Part shown: positions 5,820 to 36,882 of the stretch, in pieces
Numbering within the stretch: the stretch's first letter is position 1
Layout: the number at the start of each line of letters is the position of its first letter
Assembly: GCA_964456945.1 (NCBI GenBank)
Contig: CAYWDA010000007.1
Coordinates: 1 to 36,882, forward strand
Reading direction: 5' to 3'
Length of the DNA: 36,882 nucleotides
DNA from: an uncultured Syntrophomonadaceae bacterium
GTDB lineage: Bacteria; Bacillota; Dethiobacteria; DTU022
Notes under the pieces: generated by a model
What the model was told of the DNA's origin: nothing
Databases searched by the model: none
What the model saw: the letters and a program-made list of their open reading frames with translations, nothing else
Program-made: the position numbers and the translations under genes

Positions 5820-5865
5820 AAAAAAACAAACCGACCTTTTAGCCATGTCAATGGGTAAAGGTCGG
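5820..5865 (-). terminator. Intrinsic terminator of rpsT (hairpin shared with the convergent plus-strand gene)
   Basis: The stem pairs CCGACCTTT (5831-5839) with AAAGGTCGG (5857-5865), with inner pairing CCAT/ATGG. On the minus strand it is followed by TTTGTTTTTTT (plus-strand A-run 5820-5830). The plus-strand tail is poor in T. Confidence 0.75.
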
Positions 5866-5916
5866 ATCTTGGGTTACTGGTAAAGTAAACTTATTCAGAA
5901 TGGCTGTTTTTAGGAT

Positions 5917-6186
5917 TTAAACTGCTGCACTTTTACTGTACATCCGGCTCAAGCGCGATTTTTTACGGGCTGCGGTATTCTTATGCAAAATCCCTTTTGC
6001 CATTGCTTTATCAATCTGACGGACAGCCACATTCAGTTTTGTCTTGGCATCTTCATGGTCTCCGCCTGTTAAAGTCTCTTCAAAGCGACGGATTGATGTT
6101 TTTAACATGCTTTTAATCCGCCGGTTGCGGCTTTCACGCTTAATGTTTTGTCTGACTCTTTTTTCAGCCGATTTAATGTTAGGCAT
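5917..6186 (-). CDS. rpsT: 30S ribosomal protein S20
   Basis: The protein reads MPNIKSAEKRVRQNIKRESRNRRIKS... The ATG at 6186-6184 is preceded by SD GAGAGGAGG. The ORF-track N-terminal extension to 6285 has no SD and is not S20-like. Confidence 0.93.
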   Translation of the reverse strand: MPNIKSAEKRVRQNIKRESRNRRIKSMLKTSIRRFEETLTGGDHEDAKTKLNVAVRQIDKAMAKGILHKNTAARKKSRLSRMYSKSAAV

Positions 6187-6223
6187 AATCACTAACCTCC
6201 TCTCTATCCTGTAGGGCACTAAA

Positions 6224-6252
6224 ATATTACCATCCGGACTGATAAAATGCAA
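6224..6252 (-). promoter_or_regulatory. Sigma-A-type promoter of rpsT
   Basis: On the minus strand, TTGCAT (6252-6247) is separated by 17 nt from TAATAT (6229-6224), about 38 nt upstream of the rpsT ATG. Confidence 0.55.
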
Positions 6253-6381
6253 GCATTTGTTAGATTTATGATCATTTATGACCATATTAAATCAAAAGAA
6301 GCTATTTATCCTTCCTGATAACAGGAAGGAGTAAACCGAGTCGATACCGAAGTATTGAGAGTAAGGTATGCTCAAAGAAAG

Positions 6382-7980: not shown

Positions 7981-8024
7981 GCTGGTGATGAGAGTAATTT
8001 TCGATTTGGTGAGGGGTGAATAAA

Positions 8025-20662: not shown

Positions 20663-21733
20663 TTGAAAATACTGCATACAGCAGATTTGCATTTAACCGA
20701 AAAAGCCCCTGAGCGTTGGGAAGCCTTGGCACAAATAGTAGCTCTTGCCCGCATGCATCAAGTTTCAGCCCTGCTTATTGCCGGTGACCTGTTTGACCAT
20801 AATGTTGAAGCTGATAAACTGCGCCCCAGGCTGCGTGCAGTTCTTGCCGGGGCCGGTTTTCAAACGATTGTATTACCAGGCAACCACGATCATAAAGCGT
20901 ATCGCAGTGGTCTTTATTTTGGTGATAATGTAACAGTAATCAGCAGTTGTTCAGAGCCTGTGCGGTTCGGTGATCTGACTATATGGGGCTTGCCCTACGA
21001 AAAAATTAGCGGGGAAGATCTCGTTGGGTGCCTGCGCAGCATGGGAGCGCTTATGAACCCGAATGAGTACAATATCCTGCTCTATCACGGTGAATTGCTT
21101 GATGCCTATTTTTCCCGGCAGGAACTTGGCGATGAAGGTGATCAGCGCTATATGCCCGCCAGATTGTCATATTTTGAGCAGATGCCCCTGCAATATGTTT
21201 TAGCAGGGCATTTTCACTCCCGGTATTCCGAATGGCAGCTGCCAGGTGGCGGTCTTTTCATTTATCCTGGATCACCGGTGGCTGTAACCAGGCGCGAGAC
21301 AGGCAGGCGTGTAATAAATTTGCTTGACCTTGATAGTGCGCCGGTTGAAATACCCCTGGATAGCTACCATTATGAAGCAATAACCTTAGATCTTGATCCG
21401 TTCAGTGCAGCCGATCCGTTATTGCTTCTTGAGCAGCGTCTGCAGGGTATTCATTCAAAGGCAAAAGTACTCCTTACCGTGCAGGGCCTTTTTAACGGTT
21501 CAGCGCTCGGTATGCATGAGAGTGAACTCGCTTCCGCACTGCGTGAAAAAGCGCAAGACCGTCTGACTGGTGAACCGGTGGAAAACTTTTATGATGTACA
21601 GCATGTTCTGGAAGACGATCTCTTCAGGCAGTTTAAAACAAGGCTGGCTGAAAAGGACTGTTCTCCTGAGCAGATGGAGCAGGTCACTGAGATGGCCATT
21701 CGCGCTTTCAGGGTGGTGAAAGCATGTTCCTGA
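20663..21733 (+). CDS. SbcD/Mre11-like calcineurin-fold metallophosphoesterase (DNA repair exonuclease family, YhaO-like)
   Basis: Phosphoesterase motifs are present: MKILHTADLHL (motif I), LLIAGDLFD (II), LPGNHD (III) and AGHFH. It starts at TTG after AAAGGAG and overlaps the next gene by 10 nt. Confidence 0.8.
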   Translation: MKILHTADLHLTEKAPERWEALAQIVALARMHQVSALLIAGDLFDHNVEADKLRPRLRAVLAGAGFQTIVLPGNHDHKAYRSGLYFGDNVTVISSCSEPVRFGDLTIWGLPYEKISGEDLVGCLRSMGALMNPNEYNILLYHGELLDAYFSRQELGDEGDQRYMPARLSYFEQMPLQYVLAGHFHSRYSEWQLPGGGLFIYPGSPVAVTRRETGRRVINLLDLDSAPVEIPLDSYHYEAITLDLDPFSAADPLLLLEQRLQGIHSKAKVLLTVQGLFNGSALGMHESELASALREKAQDRLTGEPVENFYDVQHVLEDDLFRQFKTRLAEKDCSPEQMEQVTEMAIRAFRVVKACS

Positions 21734-24063
21734 AAGAATTCGCAATCAGGCGCTATGGCCCACTGCCGGATTCCGGCAAGCGGGTATTGGGAGCGTTTAA
21801 CCTCTTTTACGGGCCGAACGAAGAAGGGAAAACGCTGACTATAGATGCCATCCTGAAAATACTTTTTGGAAAAAGCGCAGCCCGCTATTTTGGCGAAATC
21901 AAAAGGGTGGAAGAAAACCCGGAAGGTTACCTGGTAATTGGGGAAAATAGCAACAAAGAAACTGTTCTTCCCGCAGAGGGTAATATTAACGAGCTTTTTG
22001 GTTATAGTATCGCTGAATTCAGTAATATCTTCATTATTCGCGACAGCGATCTGACCATTAACGATGAAGGCGATTTTTACCGCGGAATTACCGGCCGTCT
22101 GACCGGTATGCGCAGCGACGAGATCGCTAATATTAAAGACAGCCTCTGTGACCTGGGACGTATTACAGCGAGCGGTGAATATCAGAATACAGCGCCCCAT
22201 AAGTTAAAGGATCGCATCAGAAAAGTACAGGCCCTGCTTGCTAAGATTGATCCGCTTTCGGCTCGCCTGCTGGAAGAAGGTTTCAGCAACTTTGAAGAAG
22301 AACTGGCTAGCCTTGAGGCAGAGCAAAGTGAAACGGTAAATAAACTAAGCGATTTAAGGGCTGCGGCCAACCGCGATCGTTATTGCAAAGGCCGCGAGGT
22401 CTTAATAAAGCTGCAAGAAGCGCTTGCCTTTCTTGACGGACTTAAAACCTATAAGCGGGCTGACTATGAAGCCTGGCAGCGCGCTGAATTAAGCCTTGAA
22501 CATTTTGAGGATGATCACAGTCAGCTAAAAAGGGAAAACATTGAAAAGCAGGCAGCGCTGACTGTGGTGCGTAACGCTAAAAAAGAGCAGGAAATTGCTT
22601 ATAAATTAGCTGATAACAGGTTAAAAACTGCCCGGGAAAAAATTGAACCGCTGCTGGATGCTCATGATCCAGAGGAGGCCCTTGCCCTGAAAAGTGAGGT
22701 CTTTATTAATAACCCATATTACAACAGGGGTATTGTTCTGGTCGGACTCATTTTATTGATTTCGCTGGTCAGCGCTATTTTGCGCCCGTCCTGGTGGCTA
22801 TTTATTTTTCTCTCAGTCTCAGCGCTTCTGACACTGCTGGCGGGCTGGTTTCGTTATAATCTACTAGCCAGGCAAAGTCGGTTGGCCATAATCAGGGCAA
22901 AGACTTTCAGGGAGGCAGATATGTTGGGCCTTCCCGGTGGTGACATAGTTAAGCTCCGCGCCGCCCTGGGGCAATTAAATGTTGAAGCAGAGCTTCAAAG
23001 CGAGATGTTAAGTGAAGCTGAAAAAGAAGTCGAATGGCAGCAGAAAGAAGTTGATCGCCTAAACGCTGAGCTTAGAGATAAACTACAGCGCATTGCAGCC
23101 GTTAAAGAGCAGATTAACGAAATTAAGCTTACGCTGCAGCTTGATGCACTCGCTGATTTCGCAGCGCTTCTTAAAAGAAAAGATCAACTTGAAAACGACG
23201 TAGACAGGCAGGTAAGTATACTGGAGAGCCATTTTGAGCAGAAAGGCAATCTACTCTCACTTGAAAGACAGATTGATCTCTTTGCAGAACAGGTCGAAGA
23301 ATTGGCCTCCTACGCTCCGGCTGCACCGGGTGTAAAATTTGACCAATCTATCCTGAATAAACTTAATGAGAACCGCCAAAAGTTTGAAACGGCGATCAAG
23401 ATAATGCAGGAAAAGATGAAGGATAGCTCTGAAGAACTGCGCAACATAGAAAAAGAGGTCAATGAACTGCTTCATCTTGACAAGGAAGGTCATCTGCCCT
23501 GTCAGACCACACTTGACCTGGAAATGATTGGTAAACGCTTGCAAGATTGGCTTGATTGCCTTGAGACAGAAAGAAAAGCCGCCCTGCTTTCCCTCGAGAT
23601 TTTTAGCGAAATGGAGGAAGCGGAAGAGCAGAAAGTATCCGCTCTCTTCGGGCAAAACAGCCTGGTCAGCAAGTATTTTAGCATCATTACAAACGGGCGC
23701 TACAAAGAGGTTTGCTTCGACAGCAGGGATAACCCGATAAAAACTGTCCGCGCTGACGGCACAGCACTAAATGCTGCCAGTCTTTCCGGTGGTGCCTACG
23801 ACCAGCTCTATTTTGCAATCAGGCTGGCTCTCGGTGAGAAACTGCTTGAAGGAGAAAAGGGTTTTTTCATCCTTGACGATCCCTTTATCAAGGCCGATCC
23901 GGTGCGCTTACAAGCTCTTTTAAGCATGCTTTTTGAAATCTGCGCCAGCGGTTGGCAGATTCTCTACTTTAGTTCAAAGGGTGAAATTAAAGAGGCCCTA
24001 AATCACAAAATATCTGCAGGGGACGTATTAGAGTTCTCCATCAAACTGAACGACAGTAAATAA
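21724..24063 (+). CDS. SbcC/Rad50-like AAA/ABC-type ATPase with long coiled coils and a central two-helix membrane hairpin (YhaN-like)
   Basis: Walker A is FYGPNEEGKT (residues about 28-37). The C-terminal ABC signature is LSGGAYDQLYFAIRLALG and Walker B is FFILDDPF. Heptad-rich Glu/Lys/Leu segments flank two hydrophobic helices at residues about 336-376 (nt 22729-22851). There is no CxxC zinc hook. Confidence 0.8.
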   Translation: MFLKEFAIRRYGPLPDSGKRVLGAFNLFYGPNEEGKTLTIDAILKILFGKSAARYFGEIKRVEENPEGYLVIGENSNKETVLPAEGNINELFGYSIAEFSNIFIIRDSDLTINDEGDFYRGITGRLTGMRSDEIANIKDSLCDLGRITASGEYQNTAPHKLKDRIRKVQALLAKIDPLSARLLEEGFSNFEEELASLEAEQSETVNKLSDLRAAANRDRYCKGREVLIKLQEALAFLDGLKTYKRADYEAWQRAELSLEHFEDDHSQLKRENIEKQAALTVVRNAKKEQEIAYKLADNRLKTAREKIEPLLDAHDPEEALALKSEVFINNPYYNRGIVLVGLILLISLVSAILRPSWWLFIFLSVSALLTLLAGWFRYNLLARQSRLAIIRAKTFREADMLGLPGGDIVKLRAALGQLNVEAELQSEMLSEAEKEVEWQQKEVDRLNAELRDKLQRIAAVKEQINEIKLTLQLDALADFAALLKRKDQLENDVDRQVSILESHFEQKGNLLSLERQIDLFAEQVEELASYAPAAPGVKFDQSILNKLNENRQKFETAIKIMQEKMKDSSEELRNIEKEVNELLHLDKEGHLPCQTTLDLEMIGKRLQDWLDCLETERKAALLSLEIFSEMEEAEEQKVSALFGQNSLVSKYFSIITNGRYKEVCFDSRDNPIKTVRADGTALNAASLSGGAYDQLYFAIRLALGEKLLEGEKGFFILDDPFIKADPVRLQALLSMLFEICASGWQILYFSSKGEIKEALNHKISAGDVLEFSIKLNDSK

Positions 24064-25664: not shown

Positions 25665-27080
25665 GTGACTGATTTTCAGGCATTACTCAGGGAATTACCG
25701 GCGGTTGACCGCCTGCTGCGTGAACCGTTGCTGGATGATTTGGCGACCCGCCTGCCTCGCCGGGTAATTCTGCAGGCGGTTCAGGAAACGATCAACCTTT
25801 ACCGCAGTAGTATTAATGAACATAAATCAGATCCCCTAAAACTTGATCAGCTAAACCTTTCCCCGCTATCAATGGCTATGGAGGCGGCCTCGCTTGCCGA
25901 AAAACGGGCCGGGTCAAGTCTTAAACCGCTGATTAACGCTACGGGAATCGTGATTCACACCAATTTAGGGCGTGCCCCTCTGGCCGGATCTGCCGTTGAA
26001 GCACTATCAGCAGTTGCTGCAAACTACAACAATCTTGAGCTTTCGCTCGATGACGGAAAACGCGGATCACGCCAGGAGCACTTAGAAGCGCTGCTCTGTG
26101 AACTAAGCGGCGCTGAAGCAGCCATTACCCTGAATAACAACGCAGCGGCTGTCTTTTTAGCGTTGAAGGCACTGACGGACGGCCGTGAAGTAGTTGTTTC
26201 ACGCGGCCAGCTTGTAGAAATCGGTGGTTCATTCCGCATTCCCGAAATTATGGCGGCCAGCGGCGCTCACCTGGTTGAAGTGGGAACGACCAATAAAACA
26301 TATTTGCGTGACTACGAAAATGCGCTCACTGAAAACAGTGCCGCTTTTCTCAAGGTTCATAGCAGCAACTATCATATGGTAGGCTTTACCGCTGAAGTCA
26401 ATGTGGCCGACCTTGCAGCTCTTGCTCATAAACATAACCTGCTGGTGATCGAAGACCTTGGCAGTGGAGTTTTACTCGATCTTGAAAAATATGGTCTTCC
26501 CGCTGAGCCTCGCGTGCAGGACAGCATCGCTGCCGGAGTTGATCTGGTAACGTTCAGCGGTGATAAAATGCTCGGCGGACCCCAGGCCGGAATTATCGTC
26601 GGGCGCAAAGAACTGGTTGCCAGAATTCGAACCAACCAACTGGCCAGGGCGCTGCGTGTCGACAAATTCACTATCTCCGCCCTTGAAGCGACTCTTCGTC
26701 TCTACCTTGATGAAGAAAGAGCAATCAGCGAAATACCCGTGTGGCGCATGCTTACCGTCGACAATGAAGCCCTTCGAAAGCGCGCGCAGAATATTGCTAA
26801 CCGCTTCGAAGAAACATTTGGCGCAGACGCAATTTCAATTATGCAAGGCATCTCAAAGGTTGGCGGTGGCGCACTGCCCACAGCCGAACTGCCTACTTTT
26901 CTGGTTGGCATCAAGCTGCAGGAAGGCAGCCCTGAAGCGCTGGTTGAAAAACTACGTGCCGGAGACCCACCGGTAATCCTCCGCCTCCAGCAGGATACCC
27001 TGCTCTTTGACCCGCGCACCATCTTTGTAGAACAGGAAGACTCCCTGATTGAAGCTATAAGAACAGCTTACAAGGGTTAG
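25665..27080 (+). CDS. selA: L-seryl-tRNA(Sec) selenium transferase
   Basis: Matches include LRELPAVDRLL at the N-terminus, INATGIVIHTNLGRAPL, and the PLP-lysine motif FSGDKMLGGPQAGIIVG. The start is GTG after AAAGGTGAGG. Confidence 0.93.
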   Translation: MTDFQALLRELPAVDRLLREPLLDDLATRLPRRVILQAVQETINLYRSSINEHKSDPLKLDQLNLSPLSMAMEAASLAEKRAGSSLKPLINATGIVIHTNLGRAPLAGSAVEALSAVAANYNNLELSLDDGKRGSRQEHLEALLCELSGAEAAITLNNNAAAVFLALKALTDGREVVVSRGQLVEIGGSFRIPEIMAASGAHLVEVGTTNKTYLRDYENALTENSAAFLKVHSSNYHMVGFTAEVNVADLAALAHKHNLLVIEDLGSGVLLDLEKYGLPAEPRVQDSIAAGVDLVTFSGDKMLGGPQAGIIVGRKELVARIRTNQLARALRVDKFTISALEATLRLYLDEERAISEIPVWRMLTVDNEALRKRAQNIANRFEETFGADAISIMQGISKVGGGALPTAELPTFLVGIKLQEGSPEALVEKLRAGDPPVILRLQQDTLLFDPRTIFVEQEDSLIEAIRTAYKG

Positions 27081-27112
27081 CAGGTTATAGTTTGCATAGA
27101 GGAGCTGTCAGG

Positions 27113-29020
27113 TTGGAACAACTAATTATAGGCACAGCCGGCCATGTCGATCACGGCAAAACAGTGCTGATCAAAGCGCTTACCGGCGTTGATACTGATC
27201 GCCTGCAGGAAGAGAAAGAACGGGGCATTTCAATTGATCTCGGCTTCGCTCCCTTCAGGTTGCCCAGTGGCAGATTAGCCGGTGTTGTCGACGTGCCCGG
27301 TCACGAACGCTTCATCCATAATATGCTCGCCGGCGCTGCCGGAATGGATCTGGTTATGCTTGTTGTCGACGCAGTCGAAGGAGTTATGCCCCAGACCCGT
27401 GAACATCTCGATATTTTGCAGATCCTGGGCGTACAAAATGGCCTGGTAGTAATCACCAAGATTGACCTGGTAGAAGAAGAGTGGCGTGAAATGGTCCAGG
27501 AAGAGATCCGCGAAGAACTGACCGGTTCATTTCTCGAAAATGCTCCGATTATTGCTGTTTCGGCAATAAAAGGCGAAGGCATTGACGAACTTAAAACTCT
27601 GATTGATGATATGACTGCTGTTCTTGTTTCACGCAGTTCATCGGGCCCGCTGCGTCTTCCTGTTGACCGGTCTTTTGTTATTTCTGGCTTCGGTACTGTG
27701 ATTACCGGCACCCTGATTCAGGGCTCGGTGCACGTTGGTGAAACTGTGGCCATAGTGCCCCCTGGTCTTGAAGCGAGGGTGCGCAACGTTCAGGTGCACG
27801 ATGATGATGTTAAAGAAGCAAAGGCCGGGGCCAGGGTTGCTTTAAACCTTTCCGGCCTTGAGCGGGACGAAGTGCTGCGCGGCAGTGTTATCAGCACCCC
27901 CGGCTACTACCGGCAGACGGACCTGCTTGATGTTTCTGTAGAACTGCTGGCTCGCGCACCACGGCGCATTAAAAACCTTGATCCGGTACACTTCTTCCTG
28001 GGTACTGCCAGGGTTGTAGCCAGGCTGCTGCTTCTCGACCGCGACGAACTGAAACCGGGAGAAAGCTGCCCGGCCCAGTGCCGCCTTGACCGTCCCCTTG
28101 TAGCTGAGCGAGGCGATCCCTTTGTAATACGTTCTTACTCCCCGATGACCACTATCGGTGGTGGAAAAGTTTTAGATCCCTATCCGTCAAGGCACCGACG
28201 CTTTCGCAATGAAGTAATTGACCGTCTAAGCGAGCTGAAGCAAGATCCGACAGCAGGAGGCGATTCCGCTTTTGTCCGCCGCACTCTTGAAGAACTGGTA
28301 GCCGCCGATGCAGTTCGGCTGGCAAAAGAGACGCGCCTCGATCAAGAAAAAATCAATGCTATCCTCGAAGAACTTGTTGAGGCGGGCATGATTGAAAAAG
28401 TCGGCAGTTCGTATATCATTACTAAAATTTTGCACGAACTTGAAGCAAAACTGCAATCTGAACTGGAAAAATTTCACCAGAAATATCCGCTTTCGCCCGG
28501 CATTTCCCGTGCCCAGCTGAAGAGTTTTCTGCCTGGTTCATTCAATCAACGCGACTACGATGCCCTGCTTGAACGCCTGCAGAAAAGTGAAAAAGTTATG
28601 GCGAAAGGCGATCTTGTCACCCTGCACGGCTTTAAACCAGAGCCGGCGGCAAAAGACAGGCAGCAGCTCGACAAATTGGCAGAATTATATCGGGCAGGTT
28701 GGCTCCAGCCACCCTCTGTGCGCGATGCACTCGAGAAAGCCGGTTCAAACCCCGCCCGTAAAGATGAACTCTACACATTTTTAGTTAGCACAGGTATACT
28801 AATTAAATTAAACGAAGACCTCTATTACCACAGCGATGCCTACAACGAAGCGCTAAAGCTGCTGCACAGCCACTTCGCCGCAGAGAAACAGCTAACTTTG
28901 GCTCAATTTCGCGATATCACCGGCAGTTCCCGCAAATACGTCCAGGCTCTGCTTGAACACTTCGACCAGCTTAAACTAACTAAACGCGTTGAAGACCACC
29001 GCGTGGCTTTCAAACTTTAG
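27113..29020 (+). CDS. selB: Selenocysteine-specific translation elongation factor
   Basis: The G-domain motifs are [21 protein letters not shown] and TKIDL. A long C-terminal extension of winged-helix-like repeats is typical of bacterial SelB. TTG 27113 (8 nt after AGAGGAG) is preferred over the ORF-track TTG 27092. Confidence 0.9.
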
Positions 29021-29071
29021 GCTTTTTGAATAAGAAAGATAACAGCAGGCAAGTGAAAGGAAGGTGAAGAA

Positions 29072-30121
29072 ATGAGCCGCGACGAAATTCGCCTTACAAC
29101 ATTGACTGCCAGCGCCGGCTGAGCAGCAAAAATCGGGCCTGAGGCCCTGGCGCAGGTTCTGCGCCGTTTGCCCAAGTTTGACAACCCTGATTTTCTGAAT
29201 CGTGAACAGCATTTTTCCGATGCCGGCATTTATCGCATTTCTGCTACCCAGGCCCTCGTTCAGACGGTCGATTTCTTCACGCCCATTGTCGACGACCCTT
29301 ATACCTTCGGCCAGATAGCGGCAGCAAACTCACTAAGTGATGTTTATGCCATGGGTGGGAAACCTTTAACTGCCCTTAATATCATCTGTTTTCCGGTATC
29401 CTGTCAACCGCTTGAAGTGATGGAAGCTATTTTACACGGCGGTTACGATAAAGTAATTGAAGCGGGAGCAGTCGTTGTCGGAGGGCACAGCATTGAAGAT
29501 CCCGAACCTAAGTACGGTCTTTCCGTTACCGGCCTGGTCGAAATTGATCAGTTGATTACCAGCCACGGCGCCAAACCAGGTGATATTCTCGTCCTCACCA
29601 AGCCGCTCGGTACGGGCATAATTGCCACTGCGCTTAAAGGTGGTATGATTGCTGAAAAAGACGCAGTTGAAGCAGTCAGGGGTATGTCCCAGCTTAACGC
29701 TGCAGCTTCAGAAACAATGAGCGAAGTTGGCGTTACTGCCTGCACTGATGTAACCGGCTTCAGTCTACTCGGGCACCTCCGCGAAATGTTGATCACCAGC
29801 GCTGTTTCAGCCGAGATAGATTATCAAAAAGTTCCACTTTACCCGGCAGTAACCGAGATGATGGCCATGGGCATGATTCCTGCCGGAGCCTATCGCAACT
29901 TAGAATATATTCGGCCTCATGTAGACTGGCAGGGCAGCCCTGAGGCAAAAGAAGATGCACTAATTATTATGGCCGACCCCCAGACATCGGGAGGCCTGCT
30001 GGTAGCCCTGTCCCCGGAAAAAGTCGATCCTTACCTTGCCCTGCTAAACGAAAAAGGCACTGCCGGCCACCCGATCGGCCAAATTAGCGCTGACCAGGCA
30101 GGCAGAATAGTGATCAGGTAA
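29072..30121 (+). CDS. selD: Selenide, water dikinase (selenophosphate synthetase), selenocysteine-containing form; UGA at 29120-29122 decoded as Sec
   Basis: ATG 29072 follows SD AAGGAAGGTG. Translation gives MSRDEIRLTTLTASAG-U-AAKIGPEALAQVL, in frame with the tracked ORF at 29168. This aligns with E. coli SelD IRLTQYSHGAGCGCKISP, so Sec17 corresponds to Cys17 and Lys20 is conserved. Downstream motifs include DFFTPIVDDPYTFGQIAAANSLSDVYAMGGKP. Confidence 0.88.
29135..29165 (+). promoter_or_regulatory. Candidate bacterial SECIS region: two tandem hairpins downstream of the selD UGA
   Basis: Hairpin A pairs GGGCC (29135-29139) with GGCCC (29143-29147) and starts 12 nt after the UGA. Hairpin B pairs GGCGCAG (29149-29155) with CTGCGCC (29159-29165) around loop GUU. 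Confidence 0.5.
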
Positions 30122-30401
30122 AACCCTGTCAGGGCAAATTATCCGCCTTATAGTCGTTCCATAGGTTAATAGTTTCCCAGGGAAAATATTAAAGAATTTA
30201 AAAGTGAAGCAGGATAAATTAAAGGAAATGTCGAAATCCTCTAATATAGCCTGCTTTTATCGCAATTGTCCAACTATTCGTTACCATTGTAAAGGGAGGT
30301 GATCAGAAGGAACAGTTGTTTTATTTATTAATCCGGCAGACTGAATTATATTGCCGGGAAGCTTACTGTAAAACAATTTCTTTATGATGCGGGGTATGCT
30401 A

Positions 30402-31538
30402 ATGAGTACCGAAATCCAGACATTCACCGAAAAATATGATCTGCTTGGTTGTATCCAGTGTGGTCGCTGTACCGGTGGTTGCCCGGTTACCGTGCGGGCC
30501 GACCTGAATGTGCGCCGCTTTGTCAATGACGCCTACCATGAAGAAAAACTGGAAGAGTTGGCCAAACTGGCAGAGATCTGGGATTGCACGGCATGCCATA
30601 CCTGTGCTGTCCGCTGCCCCAAAGGTCTGAAACCACTGGAAGTTTTGCTTGGTTTGCGGGCAATGATTGTTGAAAGTGGCAAGGTTGAGCCTACTGTTCG
30701 CGATGCGCTGCAAAGTGTTCTACTTGAAGGAAACCCCTGGGAAAAATCGCGGGCAGCACGCAGCGATTGGATGGAGGGCCTTGACGTAAAAATCGCTGAA
30801 CCGGGTGTACCGGTCGAGAATCTCTTTTTTGTCTGCTGCACCATTGCTTATGATCCCCGGGTCCAGACGATTGCCAAGAACATGGTTAAGATTCTCAATA
30901 AAGCTGGTATCGATTATGCCTTTTTGGATGACAGTGAGAGCTGCTGCGGCAGCGAAGTATACACTCTTGGCGAAGAAGGCCTTTTCGAAATGCTTGTTGA
31001 AGACAATACCGAATACTTAAATGAATACTCCGCTCAGCGGATTGTTACCCTCTCTCCACACTGTTTTACCACTTACAAAACCCAATATCCGGATTTAAAA
31101 GCTCCGGTTTTGCACTACACCCAGCTATTAGATTTGCTGCTTAAAGAAGGCAAGCTAACCTGGAAGGGTGAATTGGGCAAAAAAATTGTCTTTCATGATC
31201 CCTGTTACCTTGGTAAACAGGGCGATGTTTACGACGAACCACGAAATCTGTTAAAGAATATTCCCGGTGCTGAACTGCTTGAATTTGATCGTTGCCGTGA
31301 GCGCAGCCTCTGCTGTGAAGGTGGTGGAGGGAAAATGTGGGTTGAATCACTGTCGAAGAAGGAAAGGCTTGCTGATACACGGATTAAAGATGCCAGGGCT
31401 CTCGGTGCTGATATCGTTGCAGTGGCTTGCCCCTTCTGCGTGTTGACCCTCGAAGATGCTATGAAAGGTCTCGGTTTTGAAGAAGAGATGCGCGTAGCCG
31501 AAATTATGGAACTTTTAGGAGAATTTGTAGAAGCATAA
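30402..31538 (+). CDS. HdrD/GlcF-like iron-sulfur protein: two [4Fe-4S] ferredoxin motifs plus two CCG domains; soluble
   Basis: The ferredoxin motifs are CIQCGRCTGGCP and CTACHTCAVRCP. CCG domain 1 reads FFVCC...SESCCGSE...SPHCFTT. CCG domain 2 reads HDPCYLG...LCCEGGGG...ACPFCVLT. No hydrophobic helices are visible. ATG 30402 was chosen (GGGG 7 nt upstream); the ORF opens at 30384. Confidence 0.8.
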   Translation: MSTEIQTFTEKYDLLGCIQCGRCTGGCPVTVRADLNVRRFVNDAYHEEKLEELAKLAEIWDCTACHTCAVRCPKGLKPLEVLLGLRAMIVESGKVEPTVRDALQSVLLEGNPWEKSRAARSDWMEGLDVKIAEPGVPVENLFFVCCTIAYDPRVQTIAKNMVKILNKAGIDYAFLDDSESCCGSEVYTLGEEGLFEMLVEDNTEYLNEYSAQRIVTLSPHCFTTYKTQYPDLKAPVLHYTQLLDLLLKEGKLTWKGELGKKIVFHDPCYLGKQGDVYDEPRNLLKNIPGAELLEFDRCRERSLCCEGGGGKMWVESLSKKERLADTRIKDARALGADIVAVACPFCVLTLEDAMKGLGFEEEMRVAEIMELLGEFVEA

Positions 31539-31574
31539 GCCTGTTTTATATTTATGTAGGAGGTGGAAAGAACA

Positions 31575-32363
31575 ATGAAAACTGTAGTTTGTATCAAGTA
31601 TGTGCCCGATACTTCCGAAGCGGAAGTAAAAGTAAACCCCGATGGCATAACAGTTGATGACAGTCGTTTTTCTTTCGATATTAACGATGCCGACAATTAT
31701 GCTGTTGAAGAATCAGTTCTGATTAAAGAAGCACAGGGCGGTGAAATTACCGTTGTCTCTATCGGGCCCAAAAAGTCGGATGTCATGATTCGTATGGCTA
31801 TGGCTAAAGGCTGTGACAAAGCCGTGCGTGTTGAAGATGAAAGAATTGCCGGCTATGACCCGCTAATGGTGGCTAAAGTGCTTGCCGGAGCTGTTAAAGG
31901 CGAAGAATTTGACCTGGTGTTGACCGGCTGTATGGCCAGTGATGACGGCCACATGTCAACCGGAGTAGCTTTGGCCGAAGAACTCGGAGTCAGCCATGCT
32001 TCAATGGTCAAAAAGGTGGAAGTGCTTGATGGCAAAGTGAGAGCTCACCGTGAACTCGAAGGCGGACTGATGGAAGTGGTTGAGATTGAACTTCCTGCAG
32101 TTTTAACCATCCAGACCGGTATCAATGAACCACGCTATGCTCCTATTCGCGGTATTCGCGAAGCACAGAAGAAAGAGCTAAAAGTGGTTAAACTTGAAGA
32201 TATTGCTGTTGATCCGGCATCCGTCGGAACTGATGCTTCACAGATTGTCCTGGAAACGCTCTATATTCCCGAAGTAGTTTCTTCTGCGGAATTTATTGAG
32301 GGCGAGCCGGACGAAAAAGCAGAAAAACTGGCGTCCATACTGGTTAAAGGAGGCTTGGTATAA
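31575..32363 (+). CDS. etfB: Electron transfer flavoprotein beta subunit
   Basis: The protein starts MKTVVCIKYVPDT and includes DLVLTGCMASDDGHMSTG and PRYAPIRGI. ATG 31575 lies 9 nt after AGGAGGTG. Confidence 0.9.
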   Translation: MKTVVCIKYVPDTSEAEVKVNPDGITVDDSRFSFDINDADNYAVEESVLIKEAQGGEITVVSIGPKKSDVMIRMAMAKGCDKAVRVEDERIAGYDPLMVAKVLAGAVKGEEFDLVLTGCMASDDGHMSTGVALAEELGVSHASMVKKVEVLDGKVRAHRELEGGLMEVVEIELPAVLTIQTGINEPRYAPIRGIREAQKKELKVVKLEDIAVDPASVGTDASQIVLETLYIPEVVSSAEFIEGEPDEKAEKLASILVKGGLV

Positions 32364-33337
32364 TGGGTAACGTTTTAGTTTTGGCTGAACACCGTCAGGG
32401 ATCTCTCAGGGATATCTCTTTTGAAATGCTTGCTGTTGCCCCGAAACTGGCTGCCGATATGGGCGGCGAAGCTGTTGGATTGCTGATCGGCAGCGGTATG
32501 GATGATATGGCCGCAAAAGTTGCTTCTTACGGGGTAAAAGTTCTGGTTGTTGACGACCCGCTCTTCGCAGATTTTAATGCTGATAAATACCAAAAAGTAT
32601 TAGCGGCGCTGATTGATGATCTTAAACCATCAGTGCTGATGACCGGTCACACCTCACAGGGTGTTGACTTTATGCCGGCCCTTGCTGTTGAGAAAAAGCT
32701 GCCCCTGGTAGCCGAAGCGGTCGGTCTGGAATTCGCCGGCGGAACCCTTAAGGCGACCCGCCAGCTATACTCGGGCAAAGTAAATGCCACCCTGGCTTTC
32801 AAGCCGGCAGATACCTACCTGGTGACCTTCAGGGAGGGCGCAGTTGAAGCTCCCGCACCCTCATCTGCAGGTGCAGTAGAGAAAGTTGATTCGCCCCTGA
32901 AGGAAGATCTTGCCTACCGTAAGTTCGTTGAATATATTGAAGCCGAAGTTGGCGATGTTGATATTACCCAGTCTGACATTTTAGTTTCTGTCGGTCGCGG
33001 CTTAAAAGAAGATAAGAACCTTGCTATAATCGAAGAACTGGCTAAGGCAATTAAAGCTGATATTGCCGGTTCGCGGGCAGCGACCGATGCCGGTTGGATA
33101 CCTCATGACCGTCAGGTCGGTACTTCCGGAAAAGCGGTTAAACCGAAACTCTATATTGCTATGGGTATTTCCGGCGCTTTCCAGCACGTTGCCGGTATGA
33201 AAGGCGCGAAGACAGTAGTAGCCATCAACAAAGATCCCGAAGCTCCGATCTTTGCCGTGGCCGACTATGCCATTGTCGACGACATGTTCAAGATTGTGCC
33301 CAAGCTGACCGAGAAGCTGAAAGAACTTAAAGGATAG
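32363..33337 (+). CDS. etfA: Electron transfer flavoprotein alpha subunit
   Basis: The C-terminal FAD-binding region reads VGRGL...[43 protein letters not shown]...[13 protein letters not shown]. The start overlaps the etfB stop (TAATG). There is no N-terminal ferredoxin domain. Confidence 0.9.
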
Positions 33338-33393
33338 TCAAAGTCAGCAGATCACAATTAAGGGTCAATCTTTGCGGGAGGATGAAAAACCAG

Positions 33394-35394
33394 ATGACGG
33401 AAAAACCAAAAGTGGGTGTCTACGTTTGCCACTGCGGAATTAACATTTCCGCAACGGTAGATGTGGATGCGGTTGCAGAATATGCGCAGACACTGCCCAA
33501 TGTGGCAGTGGCGCGCACCTATTCCTACATGTGTTCCGATCCCGGCCAGGCTCTGATCAGGAATGATATTCAGGAACAGGGCTTAAACCGGGTTGTTGTA
33601 GCTTCCTGCTCCCCCCGTATGCATGAACCAACCTTCAGAAAGGCGATCAAGAGCGCCGGGGTTAACCCCTACTTTCTTGAGATGGCCAACATCAGGGAGC
33701 ATTGCTCCTGGGTGCATGAAGATAAGGATGATGCTACGGCCAAAGCAAAAAAACTGGTTAAAGCTTCGGTGGCCAAAGTGCGACTGCTTGAAGCTCTTGA
33801 ATCAAAAGAGGTCGACTGCGAACCGGCAGCCCTGGTTATCGGGGCTGGTATTGCCGGTATCCAGGCCGCCCTTGATATTGCCGACGCCGGGTTCCAGGTC
33901 TACCTGGTTGAAAAGACTCCCTCCGTCGGCGGGCGTATGGCCCAACTGGACAAAACCTTTCCAACGCTTGACTGCTCGGCCTGTATTTTAACACCGAAGA
34001 TGGTCGACTGTGCCAACCACCCGAATATCGAACTCTTGAGCTACTCTGAGGTAGAAGAGATCAAAGGGTTTATTGGCAATTTTGATGTCAAGGTACGCAA
34101 AAAAGCGCGCTATGTTGATTTCGATAAATGCACCGGCTGCGGAGACTGTGCTTCTGAATGCCGGGTCAAGGACCGCATTCCCAGCGAGTTCGACATGGGT
34201 ATGGGTAAGCGTTCAGCAGTCTACCTGCCCTTCCCCCAGGCTGTTCCGGCCAAGTATACTATTGATCCGAAGAGCTGCCTTTTTCTGACCAAGGGGAAAT
34301 GCGGCAAAGCGCCGAAATGCCAGGAAGTCTGTCGCGCTGAAGCCATTAACTTCGACCAGGTGGACGAGATCGTCGAGTTTAAAGTCGGGGCAGTTATCGT
34401 TGCTACCGGTTTTGATCCCTTTGATGCATCACGCAAGCCGGAATACGGCTACAGTGACTATCCGAATGTGATCACCGGGATGGAGATGGAACGCCTCGTT
34501 TCAGCCTCGGGGCCAACCGGCGGCAAAGTTAAGGTTTTTAACGGTGAGGAAGAAATTGAACCGAAAGAAGTTGCTTTTATTAAGTGTGTCGGTTCCCGGG
34601 ATGCCAGCGTCGGTAATGAATACTGCTCCAGGGTCTGCTGCATGTATGTGGCAAAACAGGCCCACCTGGTCAGAGATAAGATGCCTGATGCCAACATTCG
34701 GGTTTACTACATGGATGTAAGAGCTTTCGGTAAAGGTTTCGAGGAATTCTATGACCGCGTGCGCCGCGAAAATGTTCGCTATATCCGCGGTAATCCTTCC
34801 GAGATCTTCAAACGGGGCAATAAACTGGTGGTTAAAGTTGAAGATACGCTTACCGCTACCCCTCTCGAAGACGAAGTCGATCTGGTTGTGTTGGGTGTCG
34901 GTCTTGAACCGCGTGCCGACATGCGTGAAGTTATGGATTTGCTCAGGCTTTCGCAGTCACCTGATCGTTTCTTCCTGGAAGCACACCCGAAACTGCGGCC
35001 CGTTGATACGGCAACCGATGGTGTTTTCCTCGCCGGATGCTGCCAGGGTCCGAAAGATATTCCCGATACGGTAGCCCAGGCCAAGGGAGCTGCCTCTTCG
35101 GCCATGATTCCACTGGCTCGCGGTAAGGTATTAATCAGCGCCCAGGTAGCCACTGTTAATGAGGCAACCTGCCGGGGTTGTGGTTTCTGCGTCAATATTT
35201 GCCCCTACACAGCCATTGAGCTGGTCACTGTCAACCGTTTCGGAAACGAGGTTGAAGTAGCCAGGGTCAACGAGGCTCTCTGTAAAGGTTGCGGTTCATG
35301 TTCAGCTGCCTGTCTCTCAGACTCAATTCAGCCGAAATCGTTCCGTGACCGCCAGATCCTACCGCAGATAGCGGCATTGGGGGTATTGAAATGA
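33394..35394 (+). CDS. hdrA: Heterodisulfide reductase subunit A-like FAD/FeS protein (Cys form)
   Basis: The N-terminal Cys cluster is VGVYVCHCGINIS ... ASCSPRMHE. The FAD fold is ALVIGAGIAGIQAALDIADAG. Other motifs are CTGCGDCASEC and CSRVCC, and the C-terminal 2x[4Fe-4S] reads CRGCGFCVNICP / CKGCGSCSAAC. ATG 33394 is preferred, because ATG 33382 abuts the SD GGGAGG directly. Confidence 0.88.
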   Translation: MTEKPKVGVYVCHCGINISATVDVDAVAEYAQTLPNVAVARTYSYMCSDPGQALIRNDIQEQGLNRVVVASCSPRMHEPTFRKAIKSAGVNPYFLEMANIREHCSWVHEDKDDATAKAKKLVKASVAKVRLLEALESKEVDCEPAALVIGAGIAGIQAALDIADAGFQVYLVEKTPSVGGRMAQLDKTFPTLDCSACILTPKMVDCANHPNIELLSYSEVEEIKGFIGNFDVKVRKKARYVDFDKCTGCGDCASECRVKDRIPSEFDMGMGKRSAVYLPFPQAVPAKYTIDPKSCLFLTKGKCGKAPKCQEVCRAEAINFDQVDEIVEFKVGAVIVATGFDPFDASRKPEYGYSDYPNVITGMEMERLVSASGPTGGKVKVFNGEEEIEPKEVAFIKCVGSRDASVGNEYCSRVCCMYVAKQAHLVRDKMPDANIRVYYMDVRAFGKGFEEFYDRVRRENVRYIRGNPSEIFKRGNKLVVKVEDTLTATPLEDEVDLVVLGVGLEPRADMREVMDLLRLSQSPDRFFLEAHPKLRPVDTATDGVFLAGCCQGPKDIPDTVAQAKGAASSAMIPLARGKVLISAQVATVNEATCRGCGFCVNICPYTAIELVTVNRFGNEVEVARVNEALCKGCGSCSAACLSDSIQPKSFRDRQILPQIAALGVLK

Positions 35395-35822
35395 GTAAAG
35401 ATTACGAACCAAATATCGTAGCCTTCCTCTGCAATTGGTGCTCCTATGCCGGAGCAGACCTGGCCGGAACAAGCCGGGTTCAGTACCCGGCCAATATCCA
35501 GGTAATCAGGGTAATGTGTTCGGGGCGTGTTAACCCGCTCTATGTTATGAATGCGCTGCAGCAGGGCGCAGACGGCGTACTTGTCTCAGGCTGCCACCCC
35601 GGTGACTGCCACTACATGGAAGGTAACTTCTATGCCCGGCGTCGCTTAGGTATTCTTAAAGACCTGATGGAGTATGTCGGGGTTGATCCCAAACGCTTTC
35701 ATATGAGTTGGGTGTCGGCATCCGAAGGGCACAAATGGAAGGAAGTAGTCGAAAAAACCGTCGAAGATGCAAGGGAAGCCGGACCGTTTGAAGGTTTCAG
35801 GCGCCGGCAGATCGACTGGTAG
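35391..35822 (+). CDS. mvhD: MvhD/FlxD-like [2Fe-2S] protein (methyl-viologen-reducing hydrogenase delta subunit family)
   Basis: Matches include IVAFLCNWCSYAGADLAG, IRVMCSGRV and GADGVLVSGCHPGDCHY. There is an ATGA start/stop overlap with hdrA. Confidence 0.88.
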   Translation: MSKDYEPNIVAFLCNWCSYAGADLAGTSRVQYPANIQVIRVMCSGRVNPLYVMNALQQGADGVLVSGCHPGDCHYMEGNFYARRRLGILKDLMEYVGVDPKRFHMSWVSASEGHKWKEVVEKTVEDAREAGPFEGFRRRQIDW

Positions 35823-35835
35823 GAGGGTTATTTAG

Positions 35836-36816
35836 ATGGATCTGGAACAATTACGCAAAACCGCGGCAGAGGTAGTGGCTCGTGATGATGTTAAGTACCT
35901 GATCGGTTGGAAACAAGGTACTTATGGCTACCGGGTCGCGCCGAGTTTTGTTGAAGATGCCGCCGGCGCTGCAGAGCTGATCTTTTCACCCCTCTGCACC
36001 GCCAACCTGGCCACCTATCTGACCCTGGTGGAAAAACCGCCGGTGCCACGTGGGCAGGAAGCTGACAGCCGCAAAGTCGCTCTTTTGGTTAAAGGGTGTG
36101 ACAGTCGGGCTGTAACCCAGTTGATTGTTGAAAAAGGTATTCACCGTGACCAGGTTGTTATTATCGGCTGCCCCTGCCCGGGGATGGTTGATCCTGCCCT
36201 GCTCGCAGAAAAGTATCCGGAAAGCGAAGCTGCCGCAGAAGTAGCATGGAACGGTGACGGTTTTACCATAATTAAAAGTGGCGAAGAAGTTAAAGTGGCC
36301 AGGGAAGAACTGCTGGCAGAAAAATGCCGTCTTTGCCGTTACCCCAATCCGGTAATCAGTGATATTATGCTTGGCGAAGCAGTTGAACCCTGGGAAACAT
36401 CCGAAGATAGCGGCGTGGCCGAGCTTGAAGCTAAGGATGTTGACGGCCGCGCAGCTTACTGGGAGGAGCAGTTTGCAAAGTGTGTGCGCTGTTATAGTTG
36501 TCGTAACGTTTGCCCTCTCTGCTACTGCCAGGACTGCATTCTTGATCGCCTTAACCCGACATGGGTAAATCGAGCAGTCAACTTTTCCGAGAATACAGCT
36601 TTTAATATTGCCCGGGCTTTTCACCTGGCCGGACGTTGTATAGAGTGCGGTGAGTGTGAGCGGGTTTGCCCGGCCAATATTCCCCTGGGTAAGTTAAATC
36701 GCAAACTGGCCCGGGAAGTGCGGGATAAATACGGTTTCGAACCGGGAGTAGATCCCGAGGGCGAGCCGTTCCAGGCCAGCTTTAAGCCTGATGATCCCGA
36801 GGACTTCATACTGTAG
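35836..36816 (+). CDS. Iron-sulfur protein, FlxC / sulfhydrogenase-beta (HydB)-like
   Basis: Cys clusters are GCPCPG, CRLCRYPNP, CVRCYSCRNVCPLCYC and CIECGECERVCP. It sits directly after the mvhD-like gene, as in flx-hdr loci. The family assignment rests on context and Cys pattern only. Confidence 0.5.
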   Translation: MDLEQLRKTAAEVVARDDVKYLIGWKQGTYGYRVAPSFVEDAAGAAELIFSPLCTANLATYLTLVEKPPVPRGQEADSRKVALLVKGCDSRAVTQLIVEKGIHRDQVVIIGCPCPGMVDPALLAEKYPESEAAAEVAWNGDGFTIIKSGEEVKVAREELLAEKCRLCRYPNPVISDIMLGEAVEPWETSEDSGVAELEAKDVDGRAAYWEEQFAKCVRCYSCRNVCPLCYCQDCILDRLNPTWVNRAVNFSENTAFNIARAFHLAGRCIECGECERVCPANIPLGKLNRKLAREVRDKYGFEPGVDPEGEPFQASFKPDDPEDFIL

Positions 36817-36827
36817 AGGTGGGTGAT

Positions 36828-36882
36828 ATGTCAGCGATGCTTTTAAACAAAGAAAAGTGGCCTGATTTTGTCGGAAAGTTGG
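36828..36882 (+). CDS. 5' end of a further gene of the cluster (possibly FlxB/AsrA-like), truncated by the window edge
   Basis: ATG 36828 lies after SD GAGGTGGGTG. Only 18 codons are visible (MSAMLLNKEKWPDFVGKL). Identity is inferred from position only. Confidence 0.3.
   Translation, partial: MSAMLLNKEKWPDFVGKL

Follow-up and report, generated by a model that had tools for sequence, protein, structure and literature searches.

A conserved eight-gene cluster linking HdrA and Flx subunits to a soluble EMO-type iron-sulfur protein and an electron transfer flavoprotein: a candidate electron-bifurcating system in Dethiobacteria-type Bacillota and Actinomycetota

Introduction

Electron bifurcation at flavins supplies low-potential ferredoxin in many strict anaerobes, and to our knowledge only about a dozen enzyme types that carry it out have been characterized. 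One described system, FlxABCD-HdrABC of Desulfovibrio vulgaris, is an NADH dehydrogenase/heterodisulfide reductase (Ramos et al. 2015, cited in PMC6687939). In another, the class II benzoyl-CoA reductase, the HdrA-type subunit BamE bifurcates, BamD relays electrons, and a non-bifurcating electron transfer flavoprotein (ETF) is the high-potential acceptor; BamD itself is a fused HdrBC/HdrD-like protein in which the heterodisulfide site is blocked, the proximal cluster has a His ligand, and the distal cluster shows a Cys-to-Ser exchange, and ETF docks onto this protein with its alpha-FAD domain (bioRxiv 10.64898/2026.04.10.717634). Here, we analyze a 36,882-nucleotide stretch of DNA (the window; positions 1 to 36,882 of contig CAYWDA010000007.1, assembly GCA_964456945.1, forward strand) from an uncultured Syntrophomonadaceae bacterium, and in particular a gene cluster at its 3' end that belongs to a conserved unit of eight genes encoding, in order, a soluble iron-sulfur protein with CCG domains (the CCG protein), EtfB, EtfA, HdrA, MvhD (FlxD), FlxC, FlxB, and FlxA. 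With modest confidence, we favor the reading that these genes encode one soluble, HdrA-based bifurcating NAD(P)H:ferredoxin/ETF oxidoreductase whose ETF is non-bifurcating and encoded within the operon.

As far as the citing account describes it, the D. vulgaris system resembles the window in having FlxA with NAD(P)H, FAD, and [2Fe-2S] sites, paralogous FlxB and FlxC, an FlxD equivalent to MvhD, and HdrA as the presumed bifurcating core, and its proposed reaction likewise leads from NADH to ferredoxin and a high-potential acceptor. By the same account, it has separate HdrB and HdrC, whereas the window has a fused protein of the BamD and ETF:menaquinone oxidoreductase (EMO) type together with EtfBA; moreover, the gene order in the window is reversed (hdrD-etfBA-hdrA-flxDCBA), and ETF takes the place of the DsrC disulfide as the predicted acceptor. 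The hosts of the window-type cluster are not known sulfate reducers. In the BamDEF-ETF system, too, an HdrA-type subunit is connected by a fused HdrBC/HdrD-like subunit to a non-bifurcating ETF, the FAD is fed by an MvhD-type adaptor, and the fused subunit, by description, has a His-ligated proximal and a Cys-to-Ser distal non-cubane cluster. However, BamE consists of two fused HdrA units with permuted domains, whereas the HdrA of the window is a single canonical protein of 666-670 aa, and BamF is long and contains selenocysteine, whereas MvhD has 143 residues and no selenocysteine. The two also differ in their electron input (BamGHI, which is NuoEFG/hydrogenase-like and confurcates ferredoxin and NADH, versus FlxABC), in their low-potential output (the tungsten enzyme BamBC versus, presumably, free ferredoxin), and in the location of the ETF genes, which lie elsewhere in Geobacter but inside the operon in the window. 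Genes of the AOR family, NuoEFG-like genes, and double-HdrA genes, all features of BamB-I, are absent from the cluster.

Four further groups of systems invite comparison. EMO/EtfD (PDB 9ojn) shares with the CCG protein two cubane and two non-cubane-type sites, a His ligand, a variable distal cluster, and EtfAB as partner, but it carries an N-terminal heme-b domain and five transmembrane helices and reduces menaquinone, whereas the CCG protein is soluble and encoded with HdrA. The Bcd-EtfAB, CarCDE, Ldh-EtfAB, and FixABCX/EtfABCX systems share the predicted chemistry, from NADH to ferredoxin and, via the alpha-FAD of ETF, to a high-potential acceptor, but they bifurcate at the beta-FAD of EtfB, whose motif is missing from the window EtfB, so that we would assign bifurcation to HdrA; none of their partners Bcd, Ldh, CarC, and FixCX is encoded in the window operon. 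The MvhADG/Fdh-HdrABC complexes of methanogens (5odc, 7bkb, 8rvu) contain close homologues of HdrA and MvhD, an FdhB to which the FlxC C terminus is similar, and an HdrC-like domain, whereas the window operon lacks a hydrogenase, a formate dehydrogenase, and a catalytic HdrB whose heterodisulfide site is open, and the coenzyme M/coenzyme B metabolism of methanogens is absent in window-type bacteria. Finally, Dred_0137-0148 of Desulfotomaculum reducens, with the order hdrA-mvhD-hdrD-FeS-FeS-FAD/NAD oxidoreductase, has been described but not characterized (PMC4759654); likened by gene content, it shares HdrA, MvhD, an HdrD-type protein, and FlxCBA-like genes without HdrB/C, but it lacks the etfBA genes of the window operon.

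In the searchable literature, we found neither a characterized complex that matches the cluster subunit for subunit nor a published description of a cluster of flx, hdrA, mvhD, etf, and CCG genes, although an earlier mention is possible. What would be new is the set of input and output modules; HdrA-based bifurcating complexes as such are known. Tentatively, at slightly less than an even chance, we regard the cluster as encoding a previously uncharacterized stand-alone enzyme in which a canonical HdrA bifurcates and a soluble EMO-like adaptor leads to a dedicated ETF.

Results and Discussion

An earlier annotation of the window, made from its letters alone (the original prediction), listed seven tightly packed co-directional genes, and these were reproduced exactly on the + strand, with gaps of 36, -1, 56, -4, 13, and 11 nt. 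The features of this region are as follows.

30122..30401, + strand: leader/promoter region between selD and the operon, a gap of 262-280 nt
30402..31538 (alternative start 30384), + strand: CCG protein, a soluble HdrC-HdrB fusion (HdrD-like, non-cubane) of the EMO/EtfD/BamD type (Pfam Fer4 dicluster plus two CCG domains)
31575..32363 (alternative start 31563), + strand: EtfB, apparently of a non-group-2 type (Pfam ETF)
32363..33337, + strand: EtfA, 324 aa, with the alpha-FAD domain and no N-terminal ferredoxin domain (Pfam ETF and ETF_alpha)
33394..35394 (alternative start 33382), + strand: HdrA, canonical and full-length (alignment to PDB 5odc_A)
35391..35822, + strand: MvhD/FlxD [2Fe-2S] adaptor, VhuD-like (Pfam FlpD, 2e-53)
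35836..36816, + strand: FlxC-like FeS protein, 326 aa (Fer4 dicluster and a weak FrhB_FdhB_C match)
36828..36882, + strand: 5' end of an FlxB-like gene, 18 codons (MSAMLLNKEKWPDFVGKL), cut at the window end

The start of mvhD overlaps hdrA by 4 nt, and the EtfB start at 31575 and the HdrA start at 33394 are supported by stop codons just 5' of the equivalent Met in several orthologues. In the source annotations, the CCG protein has no more specific name than "(Fe-S)-binding protein" or "Fe-S oxidoreductase," and the NCBIfam equivalog cut-off was reached by none of the CCG protein, EtfB, EtfA, HdrA, and the Flx-like proteins. No convincing transmembrane segment was found in any of the eight proteins, nor any + strand terminator-like site between the cluster genes. 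An internal promoter that would split etf from hdrA-flx was considered and rejected, as the two + strand hits inside etfA (32910-33030) are at chance level (12 promoter-like hits found versus 7.4 +/- 2.9 expected by chance).

The remainder of the unit was recovered from three metagenome contigs (L001-L003, two of them named as Mono Lake samples), which encode the identical 326-aa FlxC-like protein and carry the same genes at a protein identity of 99-100%. Downstream, they encode a 337-aa FlxB-like protein, a 280-aa FlxA-like protein, an RseC_MucC-family membrane protein, and asd, and the 18 codons at the window end are the N terminus of this FlxB (L001, 9903-10916). Both flxB and flxA, anticipated just beyond the window in the original prediction, are therefore present. 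The hdrA gene of L001 (6482-8466) is called as 613 aa with a gap before mvhD, compared with 666-670 aa in the window and L002, a difference that probably stems from a frameshift or indel in the assembly of L001.

To assess conservation, a profile scan with the CCG-protein alignment was run against one genome per species (GTDB representatives), which yielded 586 encoding stretches, and the eight proteins were then located by tblastn in the best 80 of these, on which the synteny counts given here rest. All eight genes are present, with order and strand unchanged, in 51 of the 80 loci, the other 29 being cut by contig ends, with no exceptions; the FlxA gene is present in 51/51 loci without such a cut, and etfBA lies directly 3' of the CCG gene in 75-77 loci, contig ends again accounting for the remainder. 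The loci span two phyla, Dethiobacteria-type Bacillota and Actinomycetota (Ca. Geothermincola, Ca. Solincola, and Anoxymicrobiaceae), and the host metagenome-assembled genomes (MAGs) are labeled Syntrophomonadaceae or Bacillota (many from soda-lake sediment), Dethiobacteria, or Actinomycetota, with digesters also represented. Protein identity to the window ranges from 46 to 97% overall (CCG protein, 59-90%; EtfB, 53-89%; HdrA, 70-93%; MvhD, 71-97%; FlxA, 63-94%), and the intergenic gaps are short throughout. The flanks vary by clade, and only the eight genes stay together.

This arrangement is far beyond chance. Since the eight genes are never separated in the 80 loci and only contig ends interrupt them, it is one operon rather than two that abut, a possibility that the original prediction had raised against itself and to which the lack of an internal terminator also speaks. 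Gene content, strict co-conservation, and subunit homologies are direct observations here, and they bear out the proposal that Etf, HdrA/MvhD, Flx subunits, and a soluble fused HdrCB-type CCG protein belong to one unit. Neither separate HdrB and HdrC genes nor a second CCG gene occurs in the operon of any locus; the single fused CCG protein stands in their place.

The absence of an adjacent substrate dehydrogenase, which had also been pointed out, extends beyond the window. None adjoins the cluster in the window, where the nearest acyl-CoA dehydrogenase (ACAD) gene lies 21 kb upstream at 8016-9263, and none is conserved in the flanks of the 80 loci, which show solely lineage-specific synteny. 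The same holds for Bcd/ACAD, GlcD-type Ldh, CarC, and FixCX partners, which are neither in the operon nor conserved in the 80 flanks, for metF/metV, GlcD-type, and amine dehydrogenase genes, none of which is conserved beside the cluster, and for dsrC and adh, neither of which is conserved nearby. FlxABCD-HdrABC is associated with DsrC or another disulfide as its acceptor and with ethanol metabolism. These results bear on the possibility that the complex is dedicated to a single pathway step not encoded nearby, such as the methylene-tetrahydrofolate reductase of the Wood-Ljungdahl pathway or a lactate/glycolate-type or amine dehydrogenase that uses ETF, rather than being a general NADH:ferredoxin/ETF module. 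The host clades are indeed reported to be Wood-Ljungdahl organisms (PMC7325909; PMC10608574), and EtfB is nearest to a methylotroph ETF that serves trimethylamine dehydrogenase. However, with none of the candidate genes conserved beside the cluster in any of the 80 loci, and with related organisms reported to have a separate hdrA-mvhD-metVF cluster (PMC7325909; PMC10608574), this is the explanation to which we give the least credence.

The CCG protein comprises 378-384 aa with no hydrophobic segment above threshold, its N terminus is HdrC-like, and residues 65-377 match mycobacterial EtfD (9ojn_A, 1e-49), which is the best PDB match, with HdrC next. Using an AlphaFold model that is confident in the CCG part only, 9ojn was again the top Foldseek match, with LutA and HdrB ranking lower. 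When 1.84 billion protein cluster representatives were searched exhaustively, the nearest neighbors were only 32-51% identical to the CCG protein, and among the best 150 representatives, 105 exceed 560 aa, match in their C-terminal part, and have a median of five hydrophobic segments, and so are EMO/EtfD-like membrane proteins. Because EtfD is matched by both sequence and fold and the nearest neighbors are EMO-like, the CCG protein can be placed, by homology, as a soluble member of the EMO clade.

The cysteine pattern of the protein agrees with this placement. It consists of C23/26/29/33, C68/71/74/78, C151/152, C187/188, S224-P-H226-C227, C274, C310/311, and C349/352 and is invariant, including the "SPHC" motif, in 17 aligned orthologues. 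C274, C310, C311, C349, and C352 together with H226 map onto the ligands of the His-ligated non-cubane [4Fe-4S] cluster of EtfD, and C152, C187, and C227 map onto its variable distal cluster, with S224 in place of C581 (PMC13083937). The first CCG domain retains both CC doublets (C151/152 and C187/188), unlike that of EtfD. Structures of EtfD and of a Syntrophus EMO with EtfAB indicate that their non-cubane clusters, at which ETF docks, serve electron transfer with ETF and not catalysis (PMC13083937; bioRxiv 10.64898/2026.08.18.745454). By analogy, the non-cubane clusters of the CCG protein most likely relay electrons to or from ETF without acting on a thiol or heterodisulfide substrate. The suggestion that the CCG site turns over a substrate such as a thiol/disulfide therefore loses ground, as the best PDB match is EtfD/EMO and the His ligand and Cys-to-Ser exchange are those of EMO/BamD-type electron relays.

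The features of the ETF are consistent with such a role. The closest solved relative of EtfB is the beta subunit of W3A1 ETF from Methylophilus methylotrophus (1o94_C, 178 bits), compared with 88-119 bits for bifurcating and mitochondrial-type EtfBs, and this ETF binds AMP and is non-bifurcating. At the position of the beta-FAD motif, the window EtfB reads TGCMASDDGHMSTG, whereas AGRQAIDGDTAQVG stands there in the bifurcating CarD and C. difficile EtfB, with the motif G-R-Q-A-x-D-G-D-T-A-Q-V-G; the bifurcating motif is absent from all 77 of 77 EtfB orthologues, which instead have TG[CA][ML]AxDDGxxxxG. The beta-FAD motif is said to have been the definition of group-2 Etf adopted by Garcia Costas et al. 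in 2017. By this mark, the window EtfB fails, and the ETF most likely is non-bifurcating, although the call is not absolute because the N-terminal "VCIKYVPDTS" (KYVPDT) resembles that of bifurcating EtfBs. EtfA matches CarE, C. difficile EtfA, and W3A1 ETF alpha at 190-208 bits. Taken with the EtfD/EMO-like nature of the CCG protein, the lack of the EtfB motif suggests that the Etf most likely is the high-potential electron partner of HdrA rather than a second bifurcator and that HdrA probably is the sole bifurcating site.

The original prediction had instead envisaged two potential bifurcating flavins, the beta-FAD of Etf and the FAD of HdrA, with a thiol/disulfide or another small molecule turned over at the CCG site. 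The KYVPDT motif, EtfA scores that are slightly higher against CarE and C. difficile EtfA than against W3A1, and the two CC doublets retained in the first CCG domain would all fit such an enzyme. Yet the beta-FAD motif is missing from the window and from every orthologue, the best structural relative is an AMP-type ETF, and the nearest relatives of the CCG protein are EMO-like, with a His ligand and a Ser-for-Cys exchange as in EMO/BamD-type proteins, in which the substrate cavity is reported to be closed; in addition, an NADH site on Etf would be redundant because FlxA already provides a nucleotide site. We consider the two-flavin arrangement highly improbable. It had also been argued that a non-bifurcating Etf paired with a membrane ETF:quinone oxidoreductase would speak against a new complex. 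The Etf does look non-bifurcating and its partner does belong to the EMO family, but this partner is soluble and hard-wired to HdrA, and for that reason the case for a new complex is strengthened.

The remaining subunits would supply the bifurcating core and the input. Aligned to the HdrA chain of PDB 5odc_A, the window HdrA reaches 840 bits over residues 7-664, and so over its full length, with the bifurcating FAD domain and the N-terminal, inserted, and C-terminal ferredoxin domains all represented, and with every FeS cysteine motif aligned. In the numbering of the printed alignment, K425 aligns with K409 (the flavin N5 lysine) and C198/C201 with C194/C197 (the Cys pair near the FAD). The NCBIfam HdrA2 model is matched at 892 bits, under its cut-off of 1100. 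No in-frame TGA occurs in any MvhD orthologue. FlxC matches in its C-terminal part the FdhB of Fdh-Hdr complexes (9t1s_M, 8rvu_E, and 7bkb_E) and is distantly paralogous to FlxB (23% identity, E 1e-6). The FlxB-like protein (Fer4_22) matches the beta subunit of Pyrococcus furiosus sulfhydrogenase I (9nez_B, 168 bits), and the FlxA-like protein (L001, 10919-11761; NAD_binding_1 and DHODB_Fe-S_bind) matches its gamma subunit (9nez_C, 220 bits), the gamma and beta subunits being the NADPH module of that enzyme. Judged by these matches, the 337-aa and 280-aa proteins are what FlxB and FlxA are usually described to be.

The neighborhoods of more distant soluble relatives of the CCG protein, at 40-48% identity, provide further evidence for a connection between these modules. 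Adjacent etfAB genes were found in 4/4 contigs that were long enough, and HdrA-like genes were found in 3/5. In L087, the CCG gene is followed by etfB, etfA, and, at 3512-7985, genes for a 903-aa protein with FAD, Fer4_20, and Pyr_redox_2 domains (a GltD/HdrL-like NAD(P)H module) and a 557-aa HdrA-like protein. L088/L089 carry etfA, etfB, an HdrA 33% identical to that of the window (E 1e-83), and the CCG protein, and on the 3-kb contig L086, the CCG gene is flanked by two HdrA-like partial genes. L090 has etfA, etfB, and the CCG gene beside an OYE-type reductase, and L091 has ACAD, etfB, and etfA with the CCG gene 2.3 kb farther, both with no nearby HdrA; in L092, the 522-aa neighbor is TfrB-like and lies beside a fumarate-reductase flavoprotein. 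The ETF partnership is thus general in the soluble CCG-protein clade, and the HdrA partnership recurs with other gene orders and other NAD(P)H modules, which argues for functional coupling over inherited synteny. The occurrence of a GltD/HdrL-like module in L087 in place of Flx also suggests that the ETF-linked HdrA system can exchange one NAD(P)H input module for another.

These data also bear on whether the operon might encode two co-transcribed enzymes, with soluble EtfAB and the CCG protein forming an ETF dehydrogenase to another acceptor, and HdrA-MvhD-FlxCBA forming an NAD(P)H:ferredoxin-type enzyme with another high-potential partner encoded elsewhere. The modules can exist apart, since L090 and L091 have etfAB and the CCG protein without a nearby HdrA, and the D. 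reducens locus has hdrA-mvhD-hdrD-flxCBA without etf (PMC4759654). However, the eight genes are never apart in the 80 loci of two phyla, the high-potential outlet of HdrA has to be an HdrC-like cluster chain and the operon encodes no HdrC/B homologue other than the CCG protein, and BamE-BamD-ETF is a direct precedent for such coupling, all of which makes two separate enzymes distinctly unlikely.

In the single-complex model that we favor, NAD(P)H would be oxidized at FlxA (FAD and [2Fe-2S]), and electrons would pass along the [4Fe-4S] clusters in FlxB and FlxC to MvhD with its [2Fe-2S] cluster and from there to the FAD of HdrA, the predicted site of bifurcation. The low-potential electron would leave through the ferredoxin domains of HdrA to ferredoxin, and the high-potential electron would reach the alpha-FAD of EtfAB by way of the CCG protein with its two cubane and two non-cubane clusters. 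Reduced ETF would then be re-oxidized elsewhere, with a membrane EMO or an ACAD in the role of enoyl-CoA reductase as candidates. The net reaction would be 2 NAD(P)H + 2 ferredoxin(ox) + 2 electron equivalents of ETF(ox) -> 2 NAD(P)+ + 2 ferredoxin(red) + reduced ETF, which would make the complex a functional analogue of Bcd-EtfAB or FixABCX centered on HdrA instead of a bifurcating Etf. We infer the cofactor content, nucleotide specificity, electron direction, and identity of the ETF sink in this scheme. The standard potentials of NAD and ferredoxin are -320 mV and about -450 mV, respectively. Given an ETF potential of about 0 to +16 mV (bioRxiv 10.64898/2026.04.10.717634), the forward, bifurcating reaction is comfortably exergonic. 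By analogy, every proposed interface also has a solved or reported precedent: sulfhydrogenase for the NAD(P)H module and FeS chain, Fdh-Hdr for the contact of an FdhB-like protein with MvhD and HdrA, Hdr for that of HdrA with an HdrC-like domain, and BamD and EMO for that of non-cubane clusters with ETF.

The same complex could run in the opposite direction and confurcate, with ETF reduced by an acyl-CoA or other ETF-linked dehydrogenase and reduced ferredoxin jointly reducing NAD(P)+, which would provide soluble ETF re-oxidation in syntrophic or fermentative oxidation without a membrane EMO. Hosts labeled Syntrophomonadaceae or Dethiobacteria, from soda-lake sediments and digesters, would suit this role, there is an ACAD gene in the window and another adjoining etfBA in the distant relative L091, HdrA-type modules are reversible in principle, and EMO-type proteins normally oxidize ETF (PMC13083937; bioRxiv 10.64898/2026.08.18.745454). 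On the other hand, the mean donor potential of about -220 mV would be too positive for NAD+ reduction unless the NADH/NAD ratio were very low, and no sequence feature separates the two directions. We consider confurcation unlikely as the physiological direction.

Several points weigh against the bifurcating single-complex model itself. Its assembly into one complex is predicted from synteny, and the synteny counts come from the best 80 of the 586 genome stretches. The bifurcating-like N terminus of EtfB has been mentioned above. For the CCG protein, the N-terminal third of the AlphaFold2 model is of low quality (pLDDT <50, residues 1-124), the likeness of this protein to BamD was drawn from the description of BamD in the preprint, and no enzyme that would re-oxidize ETF is encoded in the operon. 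In favor of the model, an acyl-CoA link is hinted at by the ACAD gene beside etfBA in L091 and by mutase, CoA-transferase, and Kce-like genes 5' of the operon in Actinomycetota.

Were the model to hold, it would add a bifurcating combination of Flx input, HdrA core, and ETF output, and with it a third way from NADH to reduced ferredoxin, besides the Etf-based Bcd/Fix systems and Rnf/Nfn, in fermentative and Wood-Ljungdahl anaerobes, the lineages concerned being Dethiobacteria and Geothermincolia-type Actinomycetota. HdrA-type (Hdr) bifurcation would thereby be joined to ETF and acyl-CoA metabolism, and the route from HdrA through a non-cubane adaptor to ETF, reported so far only in benzoyl-CoA reductase, would become a general modular design that accepts interchangeable NAD(P)H inputs, whether Flx or GltD/HdrL-like. 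The model also offers a testable function for "(Fe-S)-binding protein" annotations in MAGs from soda lakes, serpentinites, digesters, and the subsurface, including clades proposed as syntrophic acetate oxidizers, and would refine models of the energy metabolism of these lineages. One locus (L047) comes from a MAG classified as Dethiobacter alkaliphilus, a species available in culture, so that experiments on the hypothesis may be feasible.

Flanking Genes and Other Features of the Window

In the Bacillota loci, the operon is flanked by selA-selB(-selD) on the 5' side and by an RseC gene followed by asd or lysA on the 3' side. The RseC/MucC-family protein is a small membrane protein (L001, 11912-12373) encoded 3' of flxA in 34 genome loci of Bacillota/Dethiobacteria, at 30-75% identity, and not in Actinomycetota. 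RseC-type proteins are linked to Rnf/Rsx ferredoxin-dependent systems, and this one could anchor the complex, help it mature, or regulate it. Five Actinomycetota loci (L060, L072, L077, L082, and L085) have co-directional genes just 5' for a methylmalonyl-CoA-mutase-family large subunit, a B12-binding small subunit, and a CobA adenosyltransferase, and, farther 5' on the opposite strand, genes for a Kce-like beta-keto-acid cleavage enzyme and CoA-transferase subunits. Judging from these annotations, the upstream genes hint at a link to short-chain acyl-CoA or lysine-type fermentation.

Two sets of loci call for separate comment. The CCG gene of L084 (GCA_900198705.1, FZPS01000036.1) seemingly stands alone, but this is an artefact of a 3.3-Mb "contig" made of ~2-kb pieces joined by 100-N runs, and the locus is uninformative on synteny. 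L033 and L052 are binned as Desulfovibrio/Desulfovibrionaceae and carry CCG and etf genes 69-80% identical to those of the window, cut after etf, with selD also present 5' in L033; this level of identity resembles that of Bacillota loci, and they are probably mis-binned contigs rather than evidence of the operon in Desulfovibrio.

The ACAD gene of the window (8016-9263, + strand) lies among housekeeping genes and encodes a possible ETF partner; its best NCBIfam match is the acryloyl-CoA reductase AcrC model, at 260 bits and under the cut-off.

The leader (30122-30401) contains a weak sigma-70-like site at 30126-30154 and a 23-codon upstream open reading frame (ORF) at 30316-30387. Blocks conserved among 28 close relatives are TAATAGTT, GCAGGA...GGAAATGTCGAAAT, TATCGCAATTGTC, GGGAGGTG, and a CCGGCA/TGCCGG hairpin, the GGGAGGTG box lying ~90 nt 5' of the operon start. 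A riboswitch or structured leader was rejected, as there was no Rfam match in the whole window and the leader fold was no better than shuffles (z = -1.5), and no convincing Rex box was found as a Rex operator in 75 upstream regions.

The selA-selB(-selD) genes lie directly 5' of the operon (25665-30121 in the window; L004-L059), with selA in 37, selB in 42, and selD in 27 genome loci, including Dethiobacter, and this conserved neighborhood may simply be inherited synteny. A selenocysteine codon was suspected in the operon because of these genes, but there is no in-frame TGA in any of the eight genes in any locus, and in this cluster region only SelD itself has selenocysteine. The selD gene (29072-30121, + strand) contains an in-frame TGA and reads MSRDEIRLTTLTASAG*AAKIGPEAL..., with selenocysteine at the catalytic Cys/Sec position, and it therefore starts at the ATG at 29072 and not at the TTG at 29168 called by the ORF finder.

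Farther upstream, 20663-24063 (+ strand) encodes a calcineurin-like phosphoesterase of 356 aa and, after it, a protein of 779 aa whose N terminus weakly matches AAA_27, a pair that looks like an SbcD/SbcC-type nuclease. This pair is conserved 5' in 13-15 close relatives, as are a metallo-beta-lactamase-fold protein and a flavin reductase.

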